Positions 8,120 through 45,298 of a stretch of 50,193 bases of DNA are shown here, piece after piece. How positions within the stretch are numbered: position 1 is the stretch's first letter; each line of letters opens with the position of its first letter. Below the pieces are notes generated by a model, which worked only from the letters and a program-made list of their open reading frames with translations, had not been told where the DNA came from and did not search any database. The stretch is from a virus (taxonomy: Duplodnaviria > Heunggongvirae > Uroviricota > Caudoviricetes), in IMG/VR virus record IMGVR_UViG_2585427746_000005, positions 1-50,193 of that record, one strand, 5' to 3'. The position numbers were made by a program, and so were the translations under genes.

Positions 8120-8677
8120 TCAGCCTGGCTGGCTGGCGGGAAATTTCTTATACAGCGTGGAAATACCCACATCAAAAAGCAGCGCCACGCGCTGACGTGT
8201 TTCACCTGCAGCCAGTAACCGCCCGGCCTGCGCCCATTGTTCCTGTGACAACTTTGGACGGCGCCCGCCGATTCTCCCCTGCGCCCTTGCTGCTGCCAAT
8301 CCCGCACGGGTTCTTTCCACAATCAGTTCACGCTCCATTTCAGCCAGGGCGCCCATAATGTGGAAGAAAAAGCGCCCCATGGGTGTCGAGGTATCAATGC
8401 TGTCCGTCAGACTGCGGAAATTAACAGCCCGCTGCCGCAGTTCCTCCACGAGAACCACCAGATGCCGCATACTGCGCCCAAGTCGATCAAGCTTCCAGAC
8501 AACCAACGTATCTCCCGGTGACAGGGTTTTAAGCAGCTTTTTTAATCCGGGGCGGTCCGATGTTTTACCGCTCATTTTGTCCTCAAATATCAGTTCACAT
8601 CCTGACCGCTCCAGCGCATCACGCTGCAGTGCCGTGTTTTGTTCATTTGTTGATACGCGTATATATCCCACTTGCAT
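8120..8677 (-). CDS. Site-specific DNA invertase (Hin/Gin/Cin/Pin family serine recombinase)
   Basis: MQVGYIRVSTNEQNTALQRDAL...LVVWKLDRLGRS...GRRPKL...ISTLYKKF is near-collinear with Hin/Gin; start moved to ATG with GAGGGA SD; abuts an inversion site. Confidence 0.9.
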   Translation of the reverse strand: MQVGYIRVSTNEQNTALQRDALERSGCELIFEDKMSGKTSDRPGLKKLLKTLSPGDTLVVWKLDRLGRSMRHLVVLVEELRQRAVNFRSLTDSIDTSTPMGRFFFHIMGALAEMERELIVERTRAGLAAARAQGRIGGRRPKLSQEQWAQAGRLLAAGETRQRVALLFDVGISTLYKKFPASQPG

Positions 8678-8731
8678 CTGCTTTCCCTCACGCAAAACCC
8701 CGAATGATGCCAGCCAGGCAGAAAAACTGCA

Positions 8732-13007: not shown

Positions 13008-13353
13008 TTTCAGCTCCTGTCGATATGGAAAGAGAAACTGCGGCGCCATCGTTGCGCTGCCCGGAAAGCTCCACCACCATCGAGCCATCAAAATTTGTGC
13101 TGATAGAAATGGCATCCAGCGTCAGGCGAGGTTCCCAGCGGCTCAGCGCCACATAAACGGCAGACATAACCTGCAGGCGCAGCGCCGGGTTCTGAGGCTG
13201 ATCGATAAGCTCAGAAAGCAGCGAGCCATATTCCCTGCGGGCAATCCGGCTGCCCTGCGGCGTCAGCAAAATATCCCGCACCGATTGGCGCAAATGGTCC
13301 GTATCCGTGATCGCTTTTCCGTTGGTCTGACTCATGCCCAGATACATCGTCAT
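12994..13353 (-). CDS. Baseplate protein W (P2 gpW-like)
   Basis: 119-aa ORF, ATG start, ATGA overlap with V stop. Confidence 0.8.
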   Translation of the reverse strand: MTMYLGMSQTNGKAITDTDHLRQSVRDILLTPQGSRIARREYGSLLSELIDQPQNPALRLQVMSAVYVALSRWEPRLTLDAISISTNFDGSMVVELSGQRNDGAAVSLSISTGAENGSN

Positions 13354-13928
13354 ACCGGCCCCCCTGATTTATCACTGCCAGCTTTCACACCATCATGACC
13401 GTGTTTATCAACCACAATGTCGTTTGAACTCATGGCGCCGCCGCCCTGGGTAACACCGCCGTTAATCACCACATCACTGTTAATCCGCGTATTGTCAGCC
13501 TCCACCACAAACTCACTGGTTTTAAAAGTGACGTTATCGGCAGCCTCGATCACCATGGATTTGATGCCCCTAACATACCAGCGGCCCGTGGCGGGTTCGT
13601 ATTCAAACCAGCCGCCATCGTCATATTCGGTCACGCTGCCGTCCTCAGAATCAGACGGCGGCGGGTACTGATTGGAATAGACGGCAGGCAGCGCAAAGGC
13701 GGTTTCAAGATTGCCGCCAAGACTCAGCAGCACAACCTGCTCACCCACTGACGGTTTCCACCACGTACGTGATTTACCGGCGCGGCAGGTCAGCCAGTTA
13801 ACCCAGTTGGTTTCGAGATCGCCTGTTTTCACCCGGCATAGCCAGTTCTTCCGGTCCACTTCCGTTACAGTTCCGGTGCGGATCAGATTGGTGATAAGGC
13901 GCATGATTTCTGTTAGCTGTGTATTCAT
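13350..13928 (-). CDS. Baseplate spike/assembly protein V (P2 gpV-like)
   Basis: Start set at ATG MNTQLTEIMRLITNLIRTG; exact start uncertain (alternative ATG at 13904). Confidence 0.75.
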   Translation of the reverse strand: MNTQLTEIMRLITNLIRTGTVTEVDRKNWLCRVKTGDLETNWVNWLTCRAGKSRTWWKPSVGEQVVLLSLGGNLETAFALPAVYSNQYPPPSDSEDGSVTEYDDGGWFEYEPATGRWYVRGIKSMVIEAADNVTFKTSEFVVEADNTRINSDVVINGGVTQGGGAMSSNDIVVDKHGHDGVKAGSDKSGGPV

Positions 13929-13974
13929 TCCAATACAATGCAGAGAATACTTTCGATCAGCACTCTGTTGCTTT

Positions 13975-13992
13975 TGTATGGTGTTTAATACA
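13975..13992. promoter_or_regulatory. Candidate late promoter dyad TGT-N12-ACA between V and the divergent moron
   Basis: TGTATGGTGTTTAATACA in the 105-bp V / moron intergenic region. Confidence 0.4.
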
Positions 13993-14033
13993 ATAATCAG
14001 AATCAAGTCGAACAAAACAGCATGAGTTAAGAA

Positions 14034-14927
14034 ATGTCCCTTTATAAATACGTTTCAGCCACAACGCTCGAATACATTCTGAACGGTTCAATACGATTCA
14101 CTCAACCCGGAGGATTTAACGACCCATTCGAATTAGCTTTAGAAGTTTACAATCCTACCCTTAATGAAGATGAAAAAGTAAATATACAATTTGATGTTTT
14201 ATCGCAAGATGATTTAATTAATAAATACCTTCTTGATAAGGACTTTCAAGACGACAATTGTAGTGATGTTTTTTCTCGCGAACTTATAAGTAACCTAAAC
14301 AAAGAAATAGGCATACTATGCTTATCTAAAAATTCAGACTCCCATCTAATGTGGGCTCACTATGCCGATGAGTATAGCGGTGCTGTCATAGAGTTTGATG
14401 AAAACCATGAATATTTCTCTGGCTTAACTGAAGTTAAATATGAAAAAGATCGGCCAATTATTCACATGAATTATTTCCTAGAAAATAAAACGATCCCAAT
14501 TTCAAACCTATGCATCAAGCCGGACATTTGGAGTTACGAGAAAGAATTCAGAATAACAAGGTCATTAAGAGACTGTAAAAAAAACAAAGCCAAAACTAAA
14601 AAGTTCGATATTTACACGAACGAAATACCTCTTGATGCCATTAAAACCGTTACACTTGGCGAGCGATGCTCTCTAGAATCTGCTCGCAATACATATCATA
14701 AGCTTAAGAATACCCATGTTGCCTTGAGTATAGCTGCATTAGCAAATTGGAAGTATGAATTCCGTTATGAACCAATAAAATTTAATGAGCCAATCAAAAA
14801 TATGTCCCCGATGATCTCACCACGCACAGCGGAGATTTTTGCAGAAGATAAATCCTCGTTAGGTGAAGTTGCAAGATACATCCTCCAAAAACACCCAATG
14901 AGCAAAATAACTAAATGGCGATTATAA
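14034..14927 (+). CDS. Moron: DUF2971-like protein
   Basis: 297-aa ORF, ATG start; N-terminus LYKYVSATTLEYILNGSIRFTQPGGFNDPFE resembles the DUF2971 signature; AT-rich, opposite strand to the late operons; 3' end overlaps S by 6 nt. Confidence 0.7.
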   Translation: MSLYKYVSATTLEYILNGSIRFTQPGGFNDPFELALEVYNPTLNEDEKVNIQFDVLSQDDLINKYLLDKDFQDDNCSDVFSRELISNLNKEIGILCLSKNSDSHLMWAHYADEYSGAVIEFDENHEYFSGLTEVKYEKDRPIIHMNYFLENKTIPISNLCIKPDIWSYEKEFRITRSLRDCKKNKAKTKKFDIYTNEIPLDAIKTVTLGERCSLESARNTYHKLKNTHVALSIAALANWKYEFRYEPIKFNEPIKNMSPMISPRTAEIFAEDKSSLGEVARYILQKHPMSKITKWRL

Positions 14928-15374
14928 CAATCGACATAACCAATTTATCATGGTGTCTTTGATCAATCTCTCAGATTCAGAGTTGAATCCAAGGAGGTTA
15001 CGTTCTGTATAGCGGATTTCTGGTCCCTTGCGGCTAACCCGATCGCGCAGACCATAGTGGTGTACGCGGGCAATGCGCTGCACCCGCCCCTCAAACTGCA
15101 CGCTGGCAGAATCTGCGCTGGCGGTGGCTTTCAGGTATTTAGCGGTACGCAATTTGGTGAACATCTGCCGCTTAATTCGCCCCTGCTTCGTACGAGCCGT
15201 AACGCGGCGCGGCTCGTAGCCGCTGCCATCCGGGTTACGCTGCAGCCTGATGTTTTTTTGCTGCGTGCGGCGCAGCTGCTGCGCCAGCTCGCGCAGCATC
15301 CGCTTTCTTTCTGCCGGGGCGAGGCTTGCCAGCAGGGCTGTTAGCCACGCATCAACCTGCTGCAGCTCATCCAC
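14922..15374 (-). CDS. Tail completion protein S (P2 gpS-like)
   Basis: 150-aa ORF with GTG start overlapping the R stop. Confidence 0.7.
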   Translation of the reverse strand: MDELQQVDAWLTALLASLAPAERKRMLRELAQQLRRTQQKNIRLQRNPDGSGYEPRRVTARTKQGRIKRQMFTKLRTAKYLKATASADSASVQFEGRVQRIARVHHYGLRDRVSRKGPEIRYTERNLLGFNSESERLIKDTMINWLCRLL

Positions 15375-23391: not shown

Positions 23392-24087
23392 CTAAAACCT
23401 ATCAATTTCCAAACATGAAATGGCATCATTGAAAATTGAAAAATGCTCATCAGGAACCACTGCAGAAGCCCCACTAGTTAATTCAAAACTAATCTTTGAA
23501 TCAAGGTAAAGCCCTCCAGCTTTTATTTTATCGAGCTTGAATTCGCCATCCCCAACAAAACTCTTCAAATCATGCAAAGCATCGCCACTAGAATTCAATT
23601 CCAAACATGCTCTTGTTTTGTCAGTAACAGGAAGATTTGATACCTTCACTTTTGAAATACCAAACACCTTTACGCCAAAATTTTCTCGAACGACCCTCAT
23701 GAAAGCTTTAAGATCAACGGTTAAATTTCCATAAGCAACATTTAATCCTTCAGCCTGAGATAAAAAATCGATGAAAGGTTTAACTGTTTTTGGCGGATTG
23801 TAAAAAGTTAACAGACATATCTTATTGCTGAGGGTTTGGATAGAAAAACTAATCTGATCAAATACAACCCTTTCGAATTCCAGCACCTCACCAAATGGAT
23901 CGGCAACCGGCTCTAAAACAACAGATTTTTTATTGAAAGTTGCAGCAATACCATTATGAATGGTTTCATACTTAGTAAAGCCAGCACCAATAGCATCAGA
24001 ATAAGGCGTGTTTTTGATAAAATCAAAGACAGCCTCAGGGCTGGTTCTGATTTTCAATCTCATCCACTTCAATCTTAATTGTGACAT
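23392..24087 (-). CDS. Cargo operon gene 3, hypothetical protein
   Basis: 231 aa from ATG with AAGGAG SD; AT-rich; no motif recognised. Confidence 0.7.
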   Translation of the reverse strand: MSQLRLKWMRLKIRTSPEAVFDFIKNTPYSDAIGAGFTKYETIHNGIAATFNKKSVVLEPVADPFGEVLEFERVVFDQISFSIQTLSNKICLLTFYNPPKTVKPFIDFLSQAEGLNVAYGNLTVDLKAFMRVVRENFGVKVFGISKVKVSNLPVTDKTRACLELNSSGDALHDLKSFVGDGEFKLDKIKAGGLYLDSKISFELTSGASAVVPDEHFSIFNDAISCLEIDRF

Positions 24088-24106
24088 AGCCACTCCTTAT
24101 GATGTA

Positions 24107-25171
24107 TTAGCTGATTTCCATTATAATAGAATAAGCTCTATTTTCAATTAGTTTATTGAATCGCTCAGCTTCTCTACCAGAGAGTTTTTGCGGCTTACTG
24201 AAATATTGTCCATTTGCCTTATACTTTCTGACTCCCTTAACCAAATATGAAAAATTAGTACAATTAAGAGGATCACCAAATTGGGCCTCAAGCTCAAATA
24301 TATCTGGATCAGCCAAGTTCTCCTTGACCTTCCATTTTATTTTCCAAATATAGAACCCTCTATCATAAAGATCACTTAATTCATCAGATTTAAGCACCCC
24401 CTCCCCCTTAAGTGATGCCCTAGACACGTGCACCCCAGTTTCGGTGTTTCCATCTTCAGCCTCAATAGTTTCAGGCTTAGGGTGATATACATAAGCATCA
24501 GTAACATCCAGTAACTCATAACCATCAAGTGTACGGATTAATCTATCGAAGAATAAAGTTCTAACATCAGCAGATGTATTGTGAGAGAGAGAAATTTCGT
24601 TTAATTTTAAATCAAGGTTACTATCATCCGCTTGCTCGTCCTGAATAGCGCTGATGTGCCCAAGTAAGAGTCCCTCGTAATCTTCAAGGTTTTCATTATC
24701 TGGACGACGGATACTGTAACCATCATCAAGAGGCTCAATTTCAATTAACGCCTCTTTATTAATAGCCTGTTTGAAATCACTTTTACCATAATTAGTTGAA
24801 AGATACCTGATATTAATAAGAACTCGAGGCCCATCTACGATTATTTTACAATAATCATCCTGATCGGTAATTTCTTTCTTAAGTTTTTCTGCGGCATCTA
24901 TAATACCTTTCTTATCTATACCAGTCTCAATTCTTACACATGTAAATTTTTCGGTCCTTGTCTGGCCACCTAAAAGGGTTGCAATTTTTTGATGCTCGTA
25001 ATAATCATGAGTCATTCGAGAATAGTTTCTTGCCAATTCTTTTCGAGGTGTTTTTTTACATATTATTGTCCCCCTCTCTAAGAAAAGATCTTGAATTTCA
25101 TTTAGAGTAATTTGCTTTTGGTTTAAAGCATCATATAAAGCTTTATCAGTTACGCTGTGAATATTTTTCAT
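24107..25171 (-). CDS. Cargo operon gene 2, hypothetical protein
   Basis: 354 aa from ATG (MKNIHSV...) with GGGAG SD; ATGA overlap with gene 1 stop; no motif recognised. Confidence 0.7.
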   Translation of the reverse strand: MKNIHSVTDKALYDALNQKQITLNEIQDLFLERGTIICKKTPRKELARNYSRMTHDYYEHQKIATLLGGQTRTEKFTCVRIETGIDKKGIIDAAEKLKKEITDQDDYCKIIVDGPRVLINIRYLSTNYGKSDFKQAINKEALIEIEPLDDGYSIRRPDNENLEDYEGLLLGHISAIQDEQADDSNLDLKLNEISLSHNTSADVRTLFFDRLIRTLDGYELLDVTDAYVYHPKPETIEAEDGNTETGVHVSRASLKGEGVLKSDELSDLYDRGFYIWKIKWKVKENLADPDIFELEAQFGDPLNCTNFSYLVKGVRKYKANGQYFSKPQKLSGREAERFNKLIENRAYSIIMEIS

Positions 25172-26232
25172 TTCGGCTCCCAAGAAATAACTTCTGCAGA
25201 GAAGAATTCTTTTACTGTAGACACAACTTTAACGTCTAAATCTTCAAGCCTCTTTTTAGCTTCTTCATCTAACCCATACTCATGTGCATATTTTTCAACT
25301 CCACGTTGAAAGTGTGAGAGAATCCTCTCATCTTTTTCTCGATAAGCCAGCCTTATCCTAATTTTATTTATACCATCAAGAATTTGATAATTTGACAAAA
25401 TATCTAACAAATAAAAAAATTCATTGTCGCTATTACCTTTTTTGTTGTAATACACAACAAACCCTTCTGGATAAACCTCCTCCTCTATACCTTTAGCTCT
25501 ATTATATTTATGAACAGCGCCATGTTTGATAATCATGAAAGGTGATGACAAGACTTCTATAGTAGCTGGAAGATATTTTTCAGTCACAGCAACCTTATGA
25601 AAAGTCAATTGAGGGTAATAGAATCCATATTCTTCATCAGGAAACTCTTTCTTAGCAATCAAATCATTCATATCATTCGTAATTGCCAACATATAATTAA
25701 TCAAAAATGGATCGATTATATGAATTTGCTGACCTGAAGATAAAGGAATCTTTTCTAAATTGACAGCCTTATCCCTTCTTCCTTTAGTAGGTTTAGGAGG
25801 ATTAAAAAAATCATAAAAATCATGCTGCAACTGATTATCATGATTAAAAACAAACAACAAACCTCGAACTTCACAGTCGATTTGAGAAAAATTATACTTT
25901 TCTGACCACTCAGGACTATACCGAGCACATTCAATAGTTTTTGCTAATGACTCCAGTGCAGATTCTATTTTTGACGCATTTATTGAACCTGCTTTATAAC
26001 TTTTTAAATCAGTATTTAAATAAATGACCTTGTTTAAATATGGATCTTTATAACTAAAAACAACATCTACAGGATGCGTATGCTTCTGTTTCTTACCTTC
26101 GGGCTTATGTTTAGCCTCATCATCACAAAGGAAATCTCGGTCGCAGGGGCCATGCTGCTGCCACTTAAATCGACTCAGTAGATCCTCAGATATGCGTTTT
26201 GCCAAATCTTCAATAGGGCCGTTCTCTGCCAT
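25168..26232 (-). CDS. Cargo operon gene 1, hypothetical protein (possible PD-(D/E)xK-like motif)
   Basis: 354-aa ORF, ATG with AAGGAA SD; HPVDVVF...IYLNTDLKSYK could be a D...(D/E)xK nuclease core but this is unverified. Confidence 0.7.
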   Translation of the reverse strand: MAENGPIEDLAKRISEDLLSRFKWQQHGPCDRDFLCDDEAKHKPEGKKQKHTHPVDVVFSYKDPYLNKVIYLNTDLKSYKAGSINASKIESALESLAKTIECARYSPEWSEKYNFSQIDCEVRGLLFVFNHDNQLQHDFYDFFNPPKPTKGRRDKAVNLEKIPLSSGQQIHIIDPFLINYMLAITNDMNDLIAKKEFPDEEYGFYYPQLTFHKVAVTEKYLPATIEVLSSPFMIIKHGAVHKYNRAKGIEEEVYPEGFVVYYNKKGNSDNEFFYLLDILSNYQILDGINKIRIRLAYREKDERILSHFQRGVEKYAHEYGLDEEAKKRLEDLDVKVVSTVKEFFSAEVISWEPK

Positions 26233-33306: not shown

Positions 33307-33939
33307 ATGATACAGGTGAAAGCTGGCGAGAATACCGGGGGAAGAGAGGCTATCCATAGGCTAATGGCTGCCTATGATTTCAAATCCAGACAACAGCTGT
33401 GCGATCACCTGGGCGCATCAAAAAGCACCATGGCAAACAGATACTTAAGAGATAGTTTTCCAGCGGAATGGGTGATTCAGTGTGCTTTGGAGACAGGGGT
33501 TTCTTTACTGTGGCTCACTACCGGACAGGGTGAGACAGGTTCAAACATTGACCATAAAAAAGGTATCAATTTCGTGAACTCTGGCAAAGTTAAACCCCTT
33601 TCTGAGCTTGTCTCCCCCGAAATTGATAAGGCAACTCTCAACGGTGGTTTATTGGTCGATGCTGGAAAAGCAATCATTGATAGCAGCCTGCTCCCCTCAG
33701 ACTCAAGCAACCTATTGCTGGTGAATACTTCTGGAGATTCTTACTTAGTGGACCGCAGCCAAACACCTCCAGTTAACGGTATGTGGTTGGTAGATATCGA
33801 CGGAATAAAAAGCATTGTTAAGTTAACACGGCTACCAGGAAACAGATTAGTGGTCCATCAAGACGAATCATCCTTTGAGTGCAGTCTTGATGATATCGAG
33901 GTAGTCGGACGCGCATTAAAAATAATTAAGAGCCTTTGA
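33307..33939 (+). CDS. CI immunity repressor (186 CI-like)
   Basis: CALETG..LLWLTTGQGE and LWLVDIDGIKSIVKLTRLPG align with 186 CI as recalled. Confidence 0.8.
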   Translation: MIQVKAGENTGGREAIHRLMAAYDFKSRQQLCDHLGASKSTMANRYLRDSFPAEWVIQCALETGVSLLWLTTGQGETGSNIDHKKGINFVNSGKVKPLSELVSPEIDKATLNGGLLVDAGKAIIDSSLLPSDSSNLLLVNTSGDSYLVDRSQTPPVNGMWLVDIDGIKSIVKLTRLPGNRLVVHQDESSFECSLDDIEVVGRALKIIKSL

Positions 33940-33940
33940 T

Positions 33941-34969
33941 ATGACCATCAGAAAGCAGCCAAACGGAAAATGGTTGTGTGAATGCTACCCGAACGGGCGA
34001 GACGGCAAGCGTGTGCGCAAACAATTTGCGACGAAAGGCGAGGCCATAGCATTCGAAAACTTCACCATGGATGAAGTAAACAAAAAGCCATGGCTTGGTG
34101 AGAAGGAAGATCGTCGGCGCTTGTCAGAAGTAATTGAGCAATGGCACTCACTCTACGGGCAGACGCTTGCAGATCCCAAACGCCTGATGGCGAAACTTAA
34201 AATTATCTGTAATGGTCTGGGCGATCCCATCGCTTCAGAGCTGACCGCCGGTGACTTTACGAAATACCGCGAAGCACGGTTAAAAGGTGAGGTGCGAAAT
34301 GAAGATGGCGCGCTTATGTCACCAGTTAAGCCTCGCACGGTAAACCTTGAACAACGCAACCTATCATCCGTGTTTGGCACACTGAAAAAGTTGGGCCACT
34401 GGTCAGCACCCAACCCACTCGCCGGTTTGCCAACATTTAAAATCGCAGAAGGTGAACTGGCGTTCCTGACACCGGAAGAAATTAAACGCCTGCTGGATGC
34501 CTGCGCTGATTCTCAAAGCCCCAGCCTGCTGATGATTGCAAAAATATGCCTGGCAACTGGTGCACGCTGGAGTGAAGCCGAAAATCTGCAGGGCCATCAG
34601 TTATCGAAATACCGGATCACCTATACCAAGACTAAGGGCAAGAAAAACCGTACCGTGCCGATATCTCAGGATCTGTATGATGAACTTCCCAAGAACAGAG
34701 GGAAGTTATTCACCCCGTGCAGAAAAGCTTTTGAGCGTGCAGTAAAACGGGCAGGTATTGAGCTGCCTGAAGGCCAATGCACTCACGTGCTGCGTCATAC
34801 GTTCGCCAGTTATTTTATGATGAATGGCGGAAACATACTGGTATTAAGAGATATTCTGGGCCATGCCGATATAAAAATGACGATGATTTATGCACATTTT
34901 GCACCTGATCATCTAGAGGATGCAGTAACAAAAAACCCTTTACATGGATTAAAATGGACCTCACCATGA
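33941..34969 (+). CDS. int: Tyrosine integrase (P2/186 Int-like)
   Basis: 342 aa with C-terminal ...HVLRHTFASYFMMNGG...LGHADIKMTMIYAHF (R..H..Y catalytic signature). Confidence 0.9.
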   Translation: MTIRKQPNGKWLCECYPNGRDGKRVRKQFATKGEAIAFENFTMDEVNKKPWLGEKEDRRRLSEVIEQWHSLYGQTLADPKRLMAKLKIICNGLGDPIASELTAGDFTKYREARLKGEVRNEDGALMSPVKPRTVNLEQRNLSSVFGTLKKLGHWSAPNPLAGLPTFKIAEGELAFLTPEEIKRLLDACADSQSPSLLMIAKICLATGARWSEAENLQGHQLSKYRITYTKTKGKKNRTVPISQDLYDELPKNRGKLFTPCRKAFERAVKRAGIELPEGQCTHVLRHTFASYFMMNGGNILVLRDILGHADIKMTMIYAHFAPDHLEDAVTKNPLHGLKWTSP

Positions 34970-42210: not shown

Positions 42211-43116
42211 TTATTTAGATGCTAAAATAGTATTTTTATTGAATTTTTCATCAGCATCTGTAAGCTTTTTCATTATTAAAGCAGGGGCTATATCCTGAAG
42301 CTCCGTAGATTTTATGAAAAAATAATTACAAAGGTAAATTATATTATTAAGATTAATTGGTATATCAATATTATAATCTAACATTAACGATAACAAACGA
42401 TCTCTGTCAATTCTATAAAACTTTTTACCAAGCTCTTTCTCATTAATTATTGAAATTATCTTTTCATCAAGCTTATCGTCCATTCTCAATCTTAATTTAT
42501 TTCTTAGCATAGCGGACCATGCGCTTGACTTATAATTTCTATATGCTAAATCCTCAAATAACTTCATTATTCCCCAATCAGATGTTTCCAAAGAGGCGTA
42601 AATTCCATTCAGCGCGCGACTAAGGTCATTATGCTCAACCCAATCCTCTTTGCACTTATAGCGTAGATCATGCTCAACTTCATGCCATCCTTCAGATAAA
42701 ATAGTTCTAAATTGGACTTCAAAAGTAGTATCAATATAAGAATATTTCTTTAATAAGACACTATCATTTGATAATACTTCTGGTAACTTAAAGACGTAAT
42801 TGCATCGAGTTGCCGCAAAGAGATTAGCCGTGGTTTCGTCTACGGTTTTAGATTCAATTTCGAATAATTTCTCCAGTGTTTTTTGAGCAATAAATAAATC
42901 ATCAGGAAAATATAATATTATCCTAACCCCAAATAAGTCTTGAATTTTTTTACCATCCTCTGAGTATTTATTAGGCTCTTTTTCATATTTCTTAATTATT
43001 GAGCTTTCTGATTTTGTCCTCGAAAAAAAACGATAAAGTAATCCAATACGATTAAGTTCATCTTCTATATCTTTTTGCAAACTTTGAATAATTCGCAATT
43101 CATTCCCGTTATACAT
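42211..43116 (-). CDS. RelA/SpoT-domain nucleotidyltransferase (small alarmone synthetase / toxSAS-like)
   Basis: DLFGVRIILYF and FEVQFRTILSEGWHEVEHDLRYK match the synthetase-domain motifs; start overlaps the upstream stop (TGATG). Confidence 0.8.
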   Translation of the reverse strand: MYNGNELRIIQSLQKDIEDELNRIGLLYRFFSRTKSESSIIKKYEKEPNKYSEDGKKIQDLFGVRIILYFPDDLFIAQKTLEKLFEIESKTVDETTANLFAATRCNYVFKLPEVLSNDSVLLKKYSYIDTTFEVQFRTILSEGWHEVEHDLRYKCKEDWVEHNDLSRALNGIYASLETSDWGIMKLFEDLAYRNYKSSAWSAMLRNKLRLRMDDKLDEKIISIINEKELGKKFYRIDRDRLLSLMLDYNIDIPINLNNIIYLCNYFFIKSTELQDIAPALIMKKLTDADEKFNKNTILASK

Positions 43117-45221
43117 CAGAAATTCCTCCCAAGAATTGCTTTAATCTCTGATATTCTTGCCATGTTAAGTTCAAGGAACGAACGCTTGTCTGGCGTAAGT
43201 AAAAGACCGTCTTTCCTCAATTTATCTAAAGAATGGAGTATTTCACTTAACTGAAATTGATTGTTGTTAGAACATAAGCCTTTTATAGGCCGATGCTTAT
43301 GATAGCTAACACTCCCTCTGGGACAGAACTTCTCTAAGATGTAAATATCACAATCTGTAATATCGTGATCATTTTCACTGTTTATCTCGACAGATTTTTT
43401 ATTAATAGCATCATTGTCACATTCACATCCCAAAAAATAAATATCTTCCCTACCACTTAATTCGTTAAAACTACAATCTATAAAAGAACAGTTCACGAAT
43501 GTAACGTTTTTATAATTACCACAGGTAAATATGCTGCTAAAAAACGAACAATCAACAAAGATAGTATCATGTATTATATTTATATCGCCTAAAGAAAGTT
43601 TTGATATAGACAATTGCTCAACACTATCATTTTTTAAATCTAATGGAACTTTTCCTATAAGCAAATGACTATAAAGGATTTTATCATTACCTGACATAAA
43701 ATATAAAGCAAACTCTAAGCTATGCCAAAGTAATTCTTTTTCATCATCGATCCTCGGCATATAAGATTGCACTGCTGGTTCTATAAAACGTTTATCACCA
43801 ATCCATTCATTTGACTTATCATTAATAATATTTTCAGAAACAAAATTACCAAGAACAAATTCATTAACAAATCCAATACCTTGGTTTTCTGAGCCTGACC
43901 GATCTAATAGAGCATGCGATGCTAATTTATTAACTAATTCGTCAGTAGTTGGTCTTTCATCTACAGTATAAAGCTTTCTTGTAGCCTCCAAGAGTTGTTG
44001 ATTCTTTTCAGTTATGACTAACGATATATACTCTCTAGACTCAGATGTGTAGTTACCCTCGACCATGTCGTCAGCTATTATTTTTAGTATAGTATATTGA
44101 TCTTCAATAGACATTAATAAATCTTGTCTTTTTCTTTCTCGCTCAAGCATTGAATCAAAATACTTCCTCACTATAGTTGTTGGGTCGCTTATAACTTTAT
44201 TAAAGTCGGTGTCGTCGATGCATCTTAGAAATGATAGCAGTACAGGGTTTGATAATTTGTTAAGAGGAAATCCTGTCGATGAAATTTCATCTAAACGTTG
44301 ACCTGGAAGCCAGTCTTCAATTTGTGGTTCATGAATTCTTATTCTTATCACATCAAAATCTTCTTGATGTGATGCTATCCACTGATGGAATTCATCTCCG
44401 TCAAATATAGCTGTTCTTCGAGTTGTCAAAACCACTTTTGCACTATCAGTTAGAAGCTCACTTATTGTTTCCAGCATTGGCTCTGTTTTTTCATAATTAT
44501 TTTCAATTCCGTTTGTACTTTCATGCAATAGTTCATCAAACCCGTCAAGTATAACTGGTACATTTCCTGCTCTTATTTCATTCCTTACTAAGGCTGAGCT
44601 TAACAAAGGAAAACTTCTATCAATTTCATCTAATAGTACATACCTGAATATTTTTGCTTGCCTATTCCTTGATAGTTCTGAAAATAATGGTATTTTCCCT
44701 ATATTGTTAACTATAATCTCCCTCAATAATTCATACGCCGTGCAAGTCTTTCCAAAACCGGCTGCAGCCTCAATCAAAAACAGAATTGGACGCCTATGTT
44801 GTATTCTCTCTAATATTTCCGTAACAACATTAGCTTCGCCAATAACACCATTTAAGTAATATTTTGAATTTATGTAGGAATAAGTTGCAGTAGGTGAGTG
44901 AATTTTTACAATTGAATCTGTGAAAGTATTATAATCTTTAATCAACCTTTCTTTAGTTGAATCGACGCTAAAGAAGCCATTAAATAATTCCTTATGTGCT
45001 TCTTCATAAGACTGATATTTTTTAATTTGACATGCATAACCTAACTGCCTATATTCTTCAAAGGTTTGATTTACATTAACCTCATTATTTAGTGGAAGTA
45101 TGTCCGCGTTATGGTAGTGCCCTGTTTTAATAGAATATACAGCAATACTTTCGTTACCTGTATTTTCTTCAGTAAAACCAAACCTTTTATATATCTCTGT
45201 AAGTTTGCTTTTTCGTAACAT
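43116..45221 (-). CDS. NACHT/STAND-like P-loop NTPase with C-terminal pentapeptide repeats
   Basis: Walker A AAAGFGKT, NACHT-type Walker B VILDGFDEL, C-terminal FVDCSFFSSIFTCGNYKNVTFVNCSFIDCSF repeats; start moved to ATG with AGGAGG SD. Confidence 0.8.
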   Translation of the reverse strand: MLRKSKLTEIYKRFGFTEENTGNESIAVYSIKTGHYHNADILPLNNEVNVNQTFEEYRQLGYACQIKKYQSYEEAHKELFNGFFSVDSTKERLIKDYNTFTDSIVKIHSPTATYSYINSKYYLNGVIGEANVVTEILERIQHRRPILFLIEAAAGFGKTCTAYELLREIIVNNIGKIPLFSELSRNRQAKIFRYVLLDEIDRSFPLLSSALVRNEIRAGNVPVILDGFDELLHESTNGIENNYEKTEPMLETISELLTDSAKVVLTTRRTAIFDGDEFHQWIASHQEDFDVIRIRIHEPQIEDWLPGQRLDEISSTGFPLNKLSNPVLLSFLRCIDDTDFNKVISDPTTIVRKYFDSMLERERKRQDLLMSIEDQYTILKIIADDMVEGNYTSESREYISLVITEKNQQLLEATRKLYTVDERPTTDELVNKLASHALLDRSGSENQGIGFVNEFVLGNFVSENIINDKSNEWIGDKRFIEPAVQSYMPRIDDEKELLWHSLEFALYFMSGNDKILYSHLLIGKVPLDLKNDSVEQLSISKLSLGDINIIHDTIFVDCSFFSSIFTCGNYKNVTFVNCSFIDCSFNELSGREDIYFLGCECDNDAINKKSVEINSENDHDITDCDIYILEKFCPRGSVSYHKHRPIKGLCSNNNQFQLSEILHSLDKLRKDGLLLTPDKRSFLELNMARISEIKAILGRNF

Positions 45222-45298
45222 TAAACTCACCTCCTGATATTTTTCGCAATGATGCTATAGTCGCTGTATGAACTTTTAATATAATATTACAAAAACCA

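Follow-up and report, generated by a model that had tools for sequence, protein, structure and literature searches.

A DUF2971 gene in the slot between S and V of a P2-like prophage as a candidate single-gene anti-phage defence enzyme

What is a small AT-rich gene doing among the tail genes of a P2-like prophage, on the strand opposite to all of them? We addressed this question in a stretch of viral DNA of 50,193 nucleotides (hereafter, the window), which contains a P2-like prophage whose late genes lie on the minus strand and extend from ~1.4 kb, where tail genes lie, to ~23 kb, where the capsid and terminase genes are found, with a 186-type CI repressor and an integrase at 33.3-35.0 kb. The gene in question sits between the tail genes S and V, in what we call the S-V (orf30) slot. 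The slot and its borders are laid out as follows.

13350 to 13928, minus strand: gene V (baseplate spike), first gene of the V late operon and left border of the slot (Pfam Phage_base_V, 3.6e-18, and Apex)
14034 to 14927, plus strand: DUF2971/PDC-S31 cargo gene, 297 aa, ATG start, a single-gene cargo with a predicted ADP-ribosyltransferase fold
14922 to 15374, minus strand: gene S (tail completion), right border of the slot (Pfam Phage_tail_S, 5.5e-41)

The gene, its homologues and its prophage

The layout of the locus is as originally predicted. The 297-aa ORF is encoded on the plus strand, while all the surrounding late genes are on the minus strand, and it is AT-rich, with a GC content of 0.356 against 0.569 in the flanks. 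Along the window, GC drops to 0.33-0.38 over positions 13900-14950, compared with 0.53-0.62 on either side. Taking the ATG of MNTQLTEIM as the start of V, the slot holds this one ORF, with flanks of 105 bp on the V side and 0 bp on the S side. The ORF and S overlap tail to tail by 6 nt (14922-14927), the stop and last sense codon of the ORF being superposed on the stop (14922-14924) and last codon of S. Transcription of the ORF thus converges on S, and nothing resembling a terminator separates them: a terminator scan found no intrinsic terminator at the ORF/S junction, and RNA folding downstream of S is unremarkable (z = -1.06). These properties are those of a moron, i.e., an AT-rich, horizontally acquired gene on the strand opposite to the late genes.

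The ORF is a real gene, because an identical protein is present in NCBI (E. coli entry AB93_0241, from E. coli 5-172-05_S3_C1, 100% identity), its homologues are uniform in length (most of the 522 that we found have 293-304 aa), 33 alignment columns are invariant among 39 diverse homologues (down to 44% identity), and dN/dS is low (0.11-0.25 in comparisons with unsaturated dS). The last of these values points to purifying selection. An exhaustive search of 1.84 billion cluster representatives returned 9754 relatives at E <= 1e-3 and 28 at E <= 1e-30; the family is thus a small full-length subfamily within the very large DUF2971 superfamily.

The gene is rare in E. coli, since megablast found it in 0 of 5426 complete E. 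coli genomes, in which V alone gave matches, at 80-84%. An Enterobacter homologue (P0007) is 82% identical, and orthologues occupy the identical slot, in the same orientation, in P2-like prophages of Leclercia (69%), Pantoea (62%), Winslowiella (59%) and Klebsiella quasipneumoniae (56%). All the copies in the slot are AT-rich, with a GC content of 0.33-0.37 against 0.55-0.60 in their flanks. Across the slots of P2-like phages in at least five genera, the identity between cargo proteins (56-69%) resembles that between S proteins (58-74%), which, together with the AT-richness that has been kept, indicates either long residence or repeated exchange of the gene among P2-like phages, as judged by sequence comparison. 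More distant homologues (48-50%) were found in Stutzerimonas, where the gene adjoins an integrase, and in the accessory region of a lambdoid-type prophage of Aeromonas, ~2.6 kb from a PtuA/AriA-like ATPase. Close homologues are also present in environmental genera (Stutzerimonas, Vreelandella and Shewanella), and remote DUF2971 relatives (25-31%) are frequent on plasmids and phage-plasmids, the records numbering 653 for plasmids and 15 for phages (SSU5 among them).

Two other parts of the window deserve mention. First, the immunity repressor of the prophage (33307-34969) is of the 186 type (Phage_CI_repr and Phage_CI_C) rather than of the P2 C type, and therefore the prophage may be SOS-inducible, in contrast to P2. 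Second, outside the prophage, there is another AT-rich part of the window, an island at 36-48 kb that encodes a separate integrase, a large serine recombinase and two proteins like ParB/RepB. In this island (42211-45230, minus strand), a gene for a 301-aa RelA/SpoT-domain protein is followed directly by one for a 704-aa NA-iREase2 protein, NA-iREase2 being the NACHT-associated inactive restriction endonuclease domain. The two could be a defence pair, although they have no match in PADLOC.

The slot between S and V in P2-like prophages

The original prediction considered that V and S are normally adjacent in P2 and that the position of the gene is unusual. Neither view stands. P2 itself (NC_001895) carries between them the non-essential orf30 (261 aa), on the opposite strand and adjoining the annotated pV activator site. 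We then carried out a census in which gpS served as bait and one genome was taken per species, which left 80 loci, of which 75 have both S and V. Cargo is present in 44 of these 75 P2-like prophages, and in 34 of the 44 all of it is on the opposite strand. The question whether the position is empty in related prophages has therefore a divided answer: it is empty in 31 of 75, including the closest relative found (Kluyvera L017), and occupied in the other 44. Because the slot is empty in so many relatives, the closest one included, the gene is not structural; it is absent from most relatives, rather than being present with a structural role in all of them.

Empty slots leave 75-192 bp between S and V, whereas occupied ones hold 577-3817 bp of cargo, in most cases a gene or two. 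This cargo is AT-rich (GC 0.32-0.44 against 0.47-0.64 in the flanks) with few exceptions, which are in Pandoraea, Pseudoduganella and one Yersinia locus. The arrangement that we see in the window is thus the norm for this slot. Variation in content is considerable, the 44 occupied loci containing 62 ORFs that fall into 46 unrelated clusters. Recognisable cargo includes Septu PtuA/PtuB (three loci), an EcoRII restriction-modification pair, SIR2, TIR and Shedu SduA_C, and also BrnT/BrnA, HigB, Phd/YefM, Fic, FRG, DUF5677, DUF6216 and 8xMP. Going by these family matches, the recognisable content consists mostly of defence or conflict genes, and the slot acts like a small defence hotspot. For any single gene, location is suggestive only, as toxin-antitoxin modules, Fic proteins and methylases in the slot may serve other ends.

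Several further observations were made on slot content. About 40 of the 46 cargo clusters (loci L017 to L096) have no PADLOC match, and several of them recur across genera, e.g., a DUF6216-like protein of ~235 aa (four loci) and a protein of ~185 aa (three loci). In Winslowiella arboricola (L043, 5450-7419), the slot holds, besides the DUF2971 orthologue, an unrelated gene of 348 aa, and this gene is the sole cargo in another Pantoea prophage (L049); cargo genes can therefore stack. The Klebsiella phage ST437-OXA245phi4.1 has a different gene (288 aa) in the slot, in the same orientation, while the slot of ST15-OXA48phi14.1 is empty (68 bp).

The gene in the window belongs to another gene family than P2 orf30 but sits in an already known cargo slot, the orf30 region having been described before. 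This region was listed, together with TO (old/tin) and Z/fun, as one of three horizontal-transfer regions of P2-like phages (PMC3091744), and phage R18C has a different ORF there (PMC6823313). Recent hotspot surveys focus on old/tin, Z/fun or the D-to-C region, or pool "tail genes / downstream of gpL." P2 orf30 and other S-V cargo share with our gene the slot, the opposite strand, AT-richness and a non-essential nature. Homology is another matter. P2 Orf30 was rejected as a homologue (best BLASTP E value 0.056, over 13 residues), and so was the slot gene of ST437-OXA245phi4.1, which shows no similarity, the three cargo proteins being mutually unrelated. Neither Orf30 nor the Klebsiella phage protein has a match in Pfam or PADLOC.

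How cargo is exchanged at the slot is suggested by the comparison with Kluyvera L017, whose empty slot measures 75 bp and whose V is 94.6% identical in DNA.

13929 to 15000: exchanged cassette (pV control region, cargo gene and last ~25 codons of S), without DNA homology to Kluyvera L017

When the window is aligned by blastn with the corresponding part of L017 (5380-5560), homology ends at 13928, at the ATG of V, and restarts only at 15001, ~75 nt into the 3' end of S. It follows that, along with the cargo gene, the cassette supplies a pV control region of its own and replaces the last ~25 codons of S. Consistent with this, the S of cargo carriers has a different C-terminus over ~20 residues, the protein ending in ...NSESERLIKDTMINWLCRLL in the window versus ...NDEVETITRDTLLRWLAG.

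The slot resembles the old/tin (A-Q) and Z/fun (G-FI) hotspots (Rousset et al. 2022) in holding variable, AT-rich, defence-dominated cargo between core genes. It differs from them in its locus, in the small size of its cargo (0.6-3.8 kb) and in the cassette taking in the pV control region and the 3' end of S. At the old/tin hotspot of this prophage, between the portal gene and the replication gene (23392-26232, minus strand), we found three AT-rich ORFs of 233, 358 and 354 aa that match PADLOC Hp3, Hp2 and Hp1 (1.7e-9, 5.1e-39 and 2.3e-66), i.e., the 3HP system. 3HP (Hp1-Hp2-Hp3) comes from P2-like phages and protects against P1 (Rousset et al. 2022). At the Z/fun position, a Hin-type DNA invertase (8120-8695, minus strand; Resolvase and HTH_7, 2.8e-51) adjoins tail-fibre and tail-fibre-assembly genes, and oppositely oriented Caudo_TAP genes lie near it, which suggests an invertible host-range segment.

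Protein family, predicted fold and proposed function

As for the protein, profile searches bore out the guess that it belongs to DUF2971, with a match to PF11185 of 28.5 bits (gathering cut-off 22) that covers residues 106-174 and positions 1-89 of the model. Other matches are PADLOC PDC-S31 (PDLC04990), with an E value of 1.9e-39 over residues 2-244 of 297 and profile positions 8-254 of 259, and phrog_1762 in PHROGs (1.6e-45), a group annotated as being of unknown function. No NCBIfam family matches the protein, Pfam at E <= 1 adds only two sub-threshold, unrelated matches, and the family profile has no match among PDB sequences at E <= 10. The relevant features are listed below.

14349 to 14555, plus strand: Pfam DUF2971 region (Pfam match and alignment), with the HYA motif (Tyr110, codon 14361-14363) and the ExE motif (Glu169, 14538-14540; Glu171, 14544-14546)
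14094 to 14096, plus strand: Arg21 codon, candidate ART motif I residue, near-invariant (Lys in a few homologues) and in a predicted strand (residues 19-23)

Calling DUF2971 a domain of unknown function, as in the original prediction, is now outdated. It is a predicted ADP-ribosyltransferase (ART) family near DarT, AbiGi and Tox-ART-HYD1 (PMC12522546), it is the domain of Aristaios (PMC11381338), and PADLOC has it as PDC-S31. The predicted structure of our protein displays the split β-sheet NAD+-binding core of the ART fold and is nearest to the DarT toxin, with a resemblance to Tpt1 too. In DUF2971, the motif I His is poorly conserved, the Tyr is strictly conserved, and the third motif is ExE (PMC12522546). 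Tyr110 and ExE of our protein fall inside the Pfam match and agree with the published motif II (Tyr) and motif III (ExE). For motif I, Arg21 in the second predicted strand is tentatively the best candidate in the model, in place of the His. Tyr110, Glu169-x-Glu171, Arg82, Arg173 and an FNDPFE loop are invariant in the 39 homologues. Such a set is what one would expect of a conserved active site, and it argues against the protein being a degenerate, non-catalytic member of the ART fold, e.g., with a binding or decoy role, a reading that we therefore consider very improbable.

We propose that the gene encodes a single-gene anti-phage defence enzyme of the Aristaios/PDC-S31 kind, with an ART fold, that is carried as prophage cargo and acts in the lysogen. 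We put the probability of this reading at about 0.55, slightly better than even. The support comes from the family match, the Tyr and ExE motifs, dN/dS, the content of the slot and its being empty in many relatives, the presence of 3HP in the same prophage, the PtuA/AriA-like ATPase near the Aeromonas homologue and the precedent of Aristaios. Points against it include an ambiguous ART motif I, with Arg21 standing in for the His, and the lack of an above-threshold sigma-70 promoter upstream of the gene. In addition, a lone toxin-like enzyme without an antitoxin needs a mechanism of restraint.

PDC-S31 is a single-gene candidate proposed by "guilt-by-embedding," among 145 candidate systems (bioRxiv 10.1101/2024.01.29.577857). 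Our protein matches its profile near end to end and is encoded by a stand-alone gene, as the "S" class demands. However, PDC-S31 was defined from genes in chromosomal BREX, DISARM and type I restriction-modification loci, while ours is prophage cargo amid tail genes. Aristaios is a single DUF2971 protein of 316 aa encoded by the Lactococcus plasmid pUCCL641_199, its phage resistance being read as abortive infection and its structural model resembling ART (PMC11381338). The two have much in common: a single gene, PF11185, an ART fold over most of the protein, a similar size and a mobile element. They differ in that Aristaios comes from a Gram-positive plasmid and our gene from an enterobacterial P2-like prophage. 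What links them is a common Pfam family and fold, sequence relatedness being probably remote; Lactococcus is absent among the plasmid matches listed for our protein. The anti-phage phenotype has been demonstrated for Aristaios only, that of the prophage gene being predicted.

The mechanism that we envisage is the following. The gene would encode a cytoplasmic enzyme with an ART fold, present in the lysogen. Upon infection by a heterologous phage, it would use NAD+ to ADP-ribosylate a target and thereby cause abortive infection. As the fold resembles those of DarT and Tpt1, nucleic acid is the probable target, a protein being possible as well. There being no antitoxin partner, the protein would have to restrain itself or respond only to a trigger or target that comes from a phage.

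The missing partner also bears on whether the gene might simply be a selfish toxin or addiction module that stabilises the prophage or hitch-hikes in it, with no role in phage defence. A fold nearest to the DarT toxin is in line with this, as are the toxin-antitoxin pairs found elsewhere in the slot (BrnTA, HigB and Phd/YefM) and the AT-richness that has persisted after long residence. However, no antitoxin gene is present, the flanks of 105 bp and 0 bp being too small for another ORF, and an unopposed constitutive toxin is not expected to persist under the purifying selection seen. We therefore consider this quite unlikely. As for DarTG itself, this identity was rejected: there is no DarG macrodomain partner at the slot or in the homologue contexts examined, and no DarT Pfam match. 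Compared with DarT, our protein is ~90 residues longer and shows no sequence-level similarity.

An effector role has been proposed for ~18% of DUF2971 proteins, including Legionella lpg1268, which raises the prospect of lysogenic conversion or virulence, directed at eukaryotic cells or competitor bacteria. Here, we see no signal peptide and no Rhs/PAAR carrier, nor is there an immunity gene or a secretion system nearby; the surroundings consist of phage tail genes alone, and the environmental Stutzerimonas, Vreelandella and Shewanella are among the sources of close homologues. A role of this kind is, in our opinion, highly unlikely.

Control region and expression of the gene

If the protein acts as a defence enzyme in the lysogen, as we favour, the gene must be expressed there, and the region that it shares with V is of interest in this respect.

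13929 to 14033: divergent control region from the V start codon to the cargo start codon, 105 bp
13975 to 13992: TGT-N12-ACA dyad (TGTATGGTGTTTAATACA), predicted from geometry and conservation to be the Ogr-type activator site of pV
13968 to 13997, plus strand: weak candidate sigma-70 promoter of the cargo gene, TTGCTT (13968-13973), 18 bp, AATAAT (13992-13997), which brackets the dyad; sub-threshold, low confidence

The TGT-N12-ACA dyad noted originally upstream of the ORF is indeed there, within the 105-bp intergenic region. The bare pattern occurs at chance level in the window, with 11 instances found versus 10.5 expected, and it is the context of this one that matters. Its centre is 55.5 bp from the ATG of V, the distance at which the pV activator site of P2 is annotated. 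Both arms, TGT and ACA, are retained without change in four other species, at loci of Leclercia, Klebsiella and Pantoea, and an equivalent dyad is found at the same place in relatives without cargo. Because of the P2-like spacing, the invariant arms and its presence in cargo-free relatives, we assign the dyad to pV, as its predicted Ogr-type activator site.

The cargo gene lies beside this Ogr-dependent control region and shares the dyad, which is one ground for a different view, i.e., that the ART is made during lytic growth or early infection, when it would modify host proteins or nucleic acids so as to favour the P2-like phage or disarm host immunity. There are phage precedents, as Alt, ModA and ModB of T4 modify host proteins. 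In addition, the gene has kept to this slot across five or more genera while diverging about as much as S, which looks like long co-residence with the phage backbone. The details speak against this. If the canonical geometry applied (dyad centred at -55), plus-strand transcription would begin at ~14038, past the ATG of the ORF, and in Pantoea the dyad is only ~25 nt from the cargo ATG. The ORF is therefore not a standard Ogr-activated late gene. Moreover, late transcripts reading through S would be antisense to the gene, there being no terminator. Homologues exist outside phages, beside an integrase, and the family was flagged because of its embedding in host defence systems. Finally, the protein has no viral structural relatives, a Foldseek search of its model against the predicted viral structures of BFVD having returned nothing at E <= 0.001. 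We conclude that a benefit to the lytic phage is unlikely.

Returning to the defence enzyme that we favour, it would probably be transcribed in the lysogen from a weak promoter of its own, which we assume to lie in the divergent region. No sigma-70 promoter upstream of the ORF scored above threshold in a promoter scan, and two weak candidates were found by eye. One of them, TTGCTT/AATAAT, has been kept in Leclercia and, in weaker form, in Klebsiella, but not in Pantoea.

This arrangement raises the speculative prospect that the cassette is wired for self-protection, such that the late phase of the prophage shuts off its own defence enzyme, a lone antitoxin-less ART acting on nucleic acid hits only foreign phages, and the cassette moves as a unit among P2-like phages. 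Ogr bound to the dyad, which the cargo promoter elements bracket, would shut the cargo promoter in the late phase, and unterminated read-through of the late operon from S would then run antisense across the cargo gene. We regard this scheme as doubtful and give it a small chance of being correct.

Together, these findings do not overturn current understanding, neither through the gene nor through the slot census. What they mainly add is that the S-V slot often holds cargo and is rich in defence genes, and that its cassettes extend over the pV control region on one side and into the 3' end of S on the other. The slot thus represents a compact, minable source of candidate defence genes alongside the old/tin and Z/fun hotspots. 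Should the DUF2971 protein prove to be an enzyme active in defence, DUF2971/PDC-S31 would have its first example from an enterobacterial prophage, and one in which an ART-fold effector acts alone, with no antitoxin. The protein would then also provide a handy E. coli model for finding out which targets DUF2971 enzymes modify and what triggers them.
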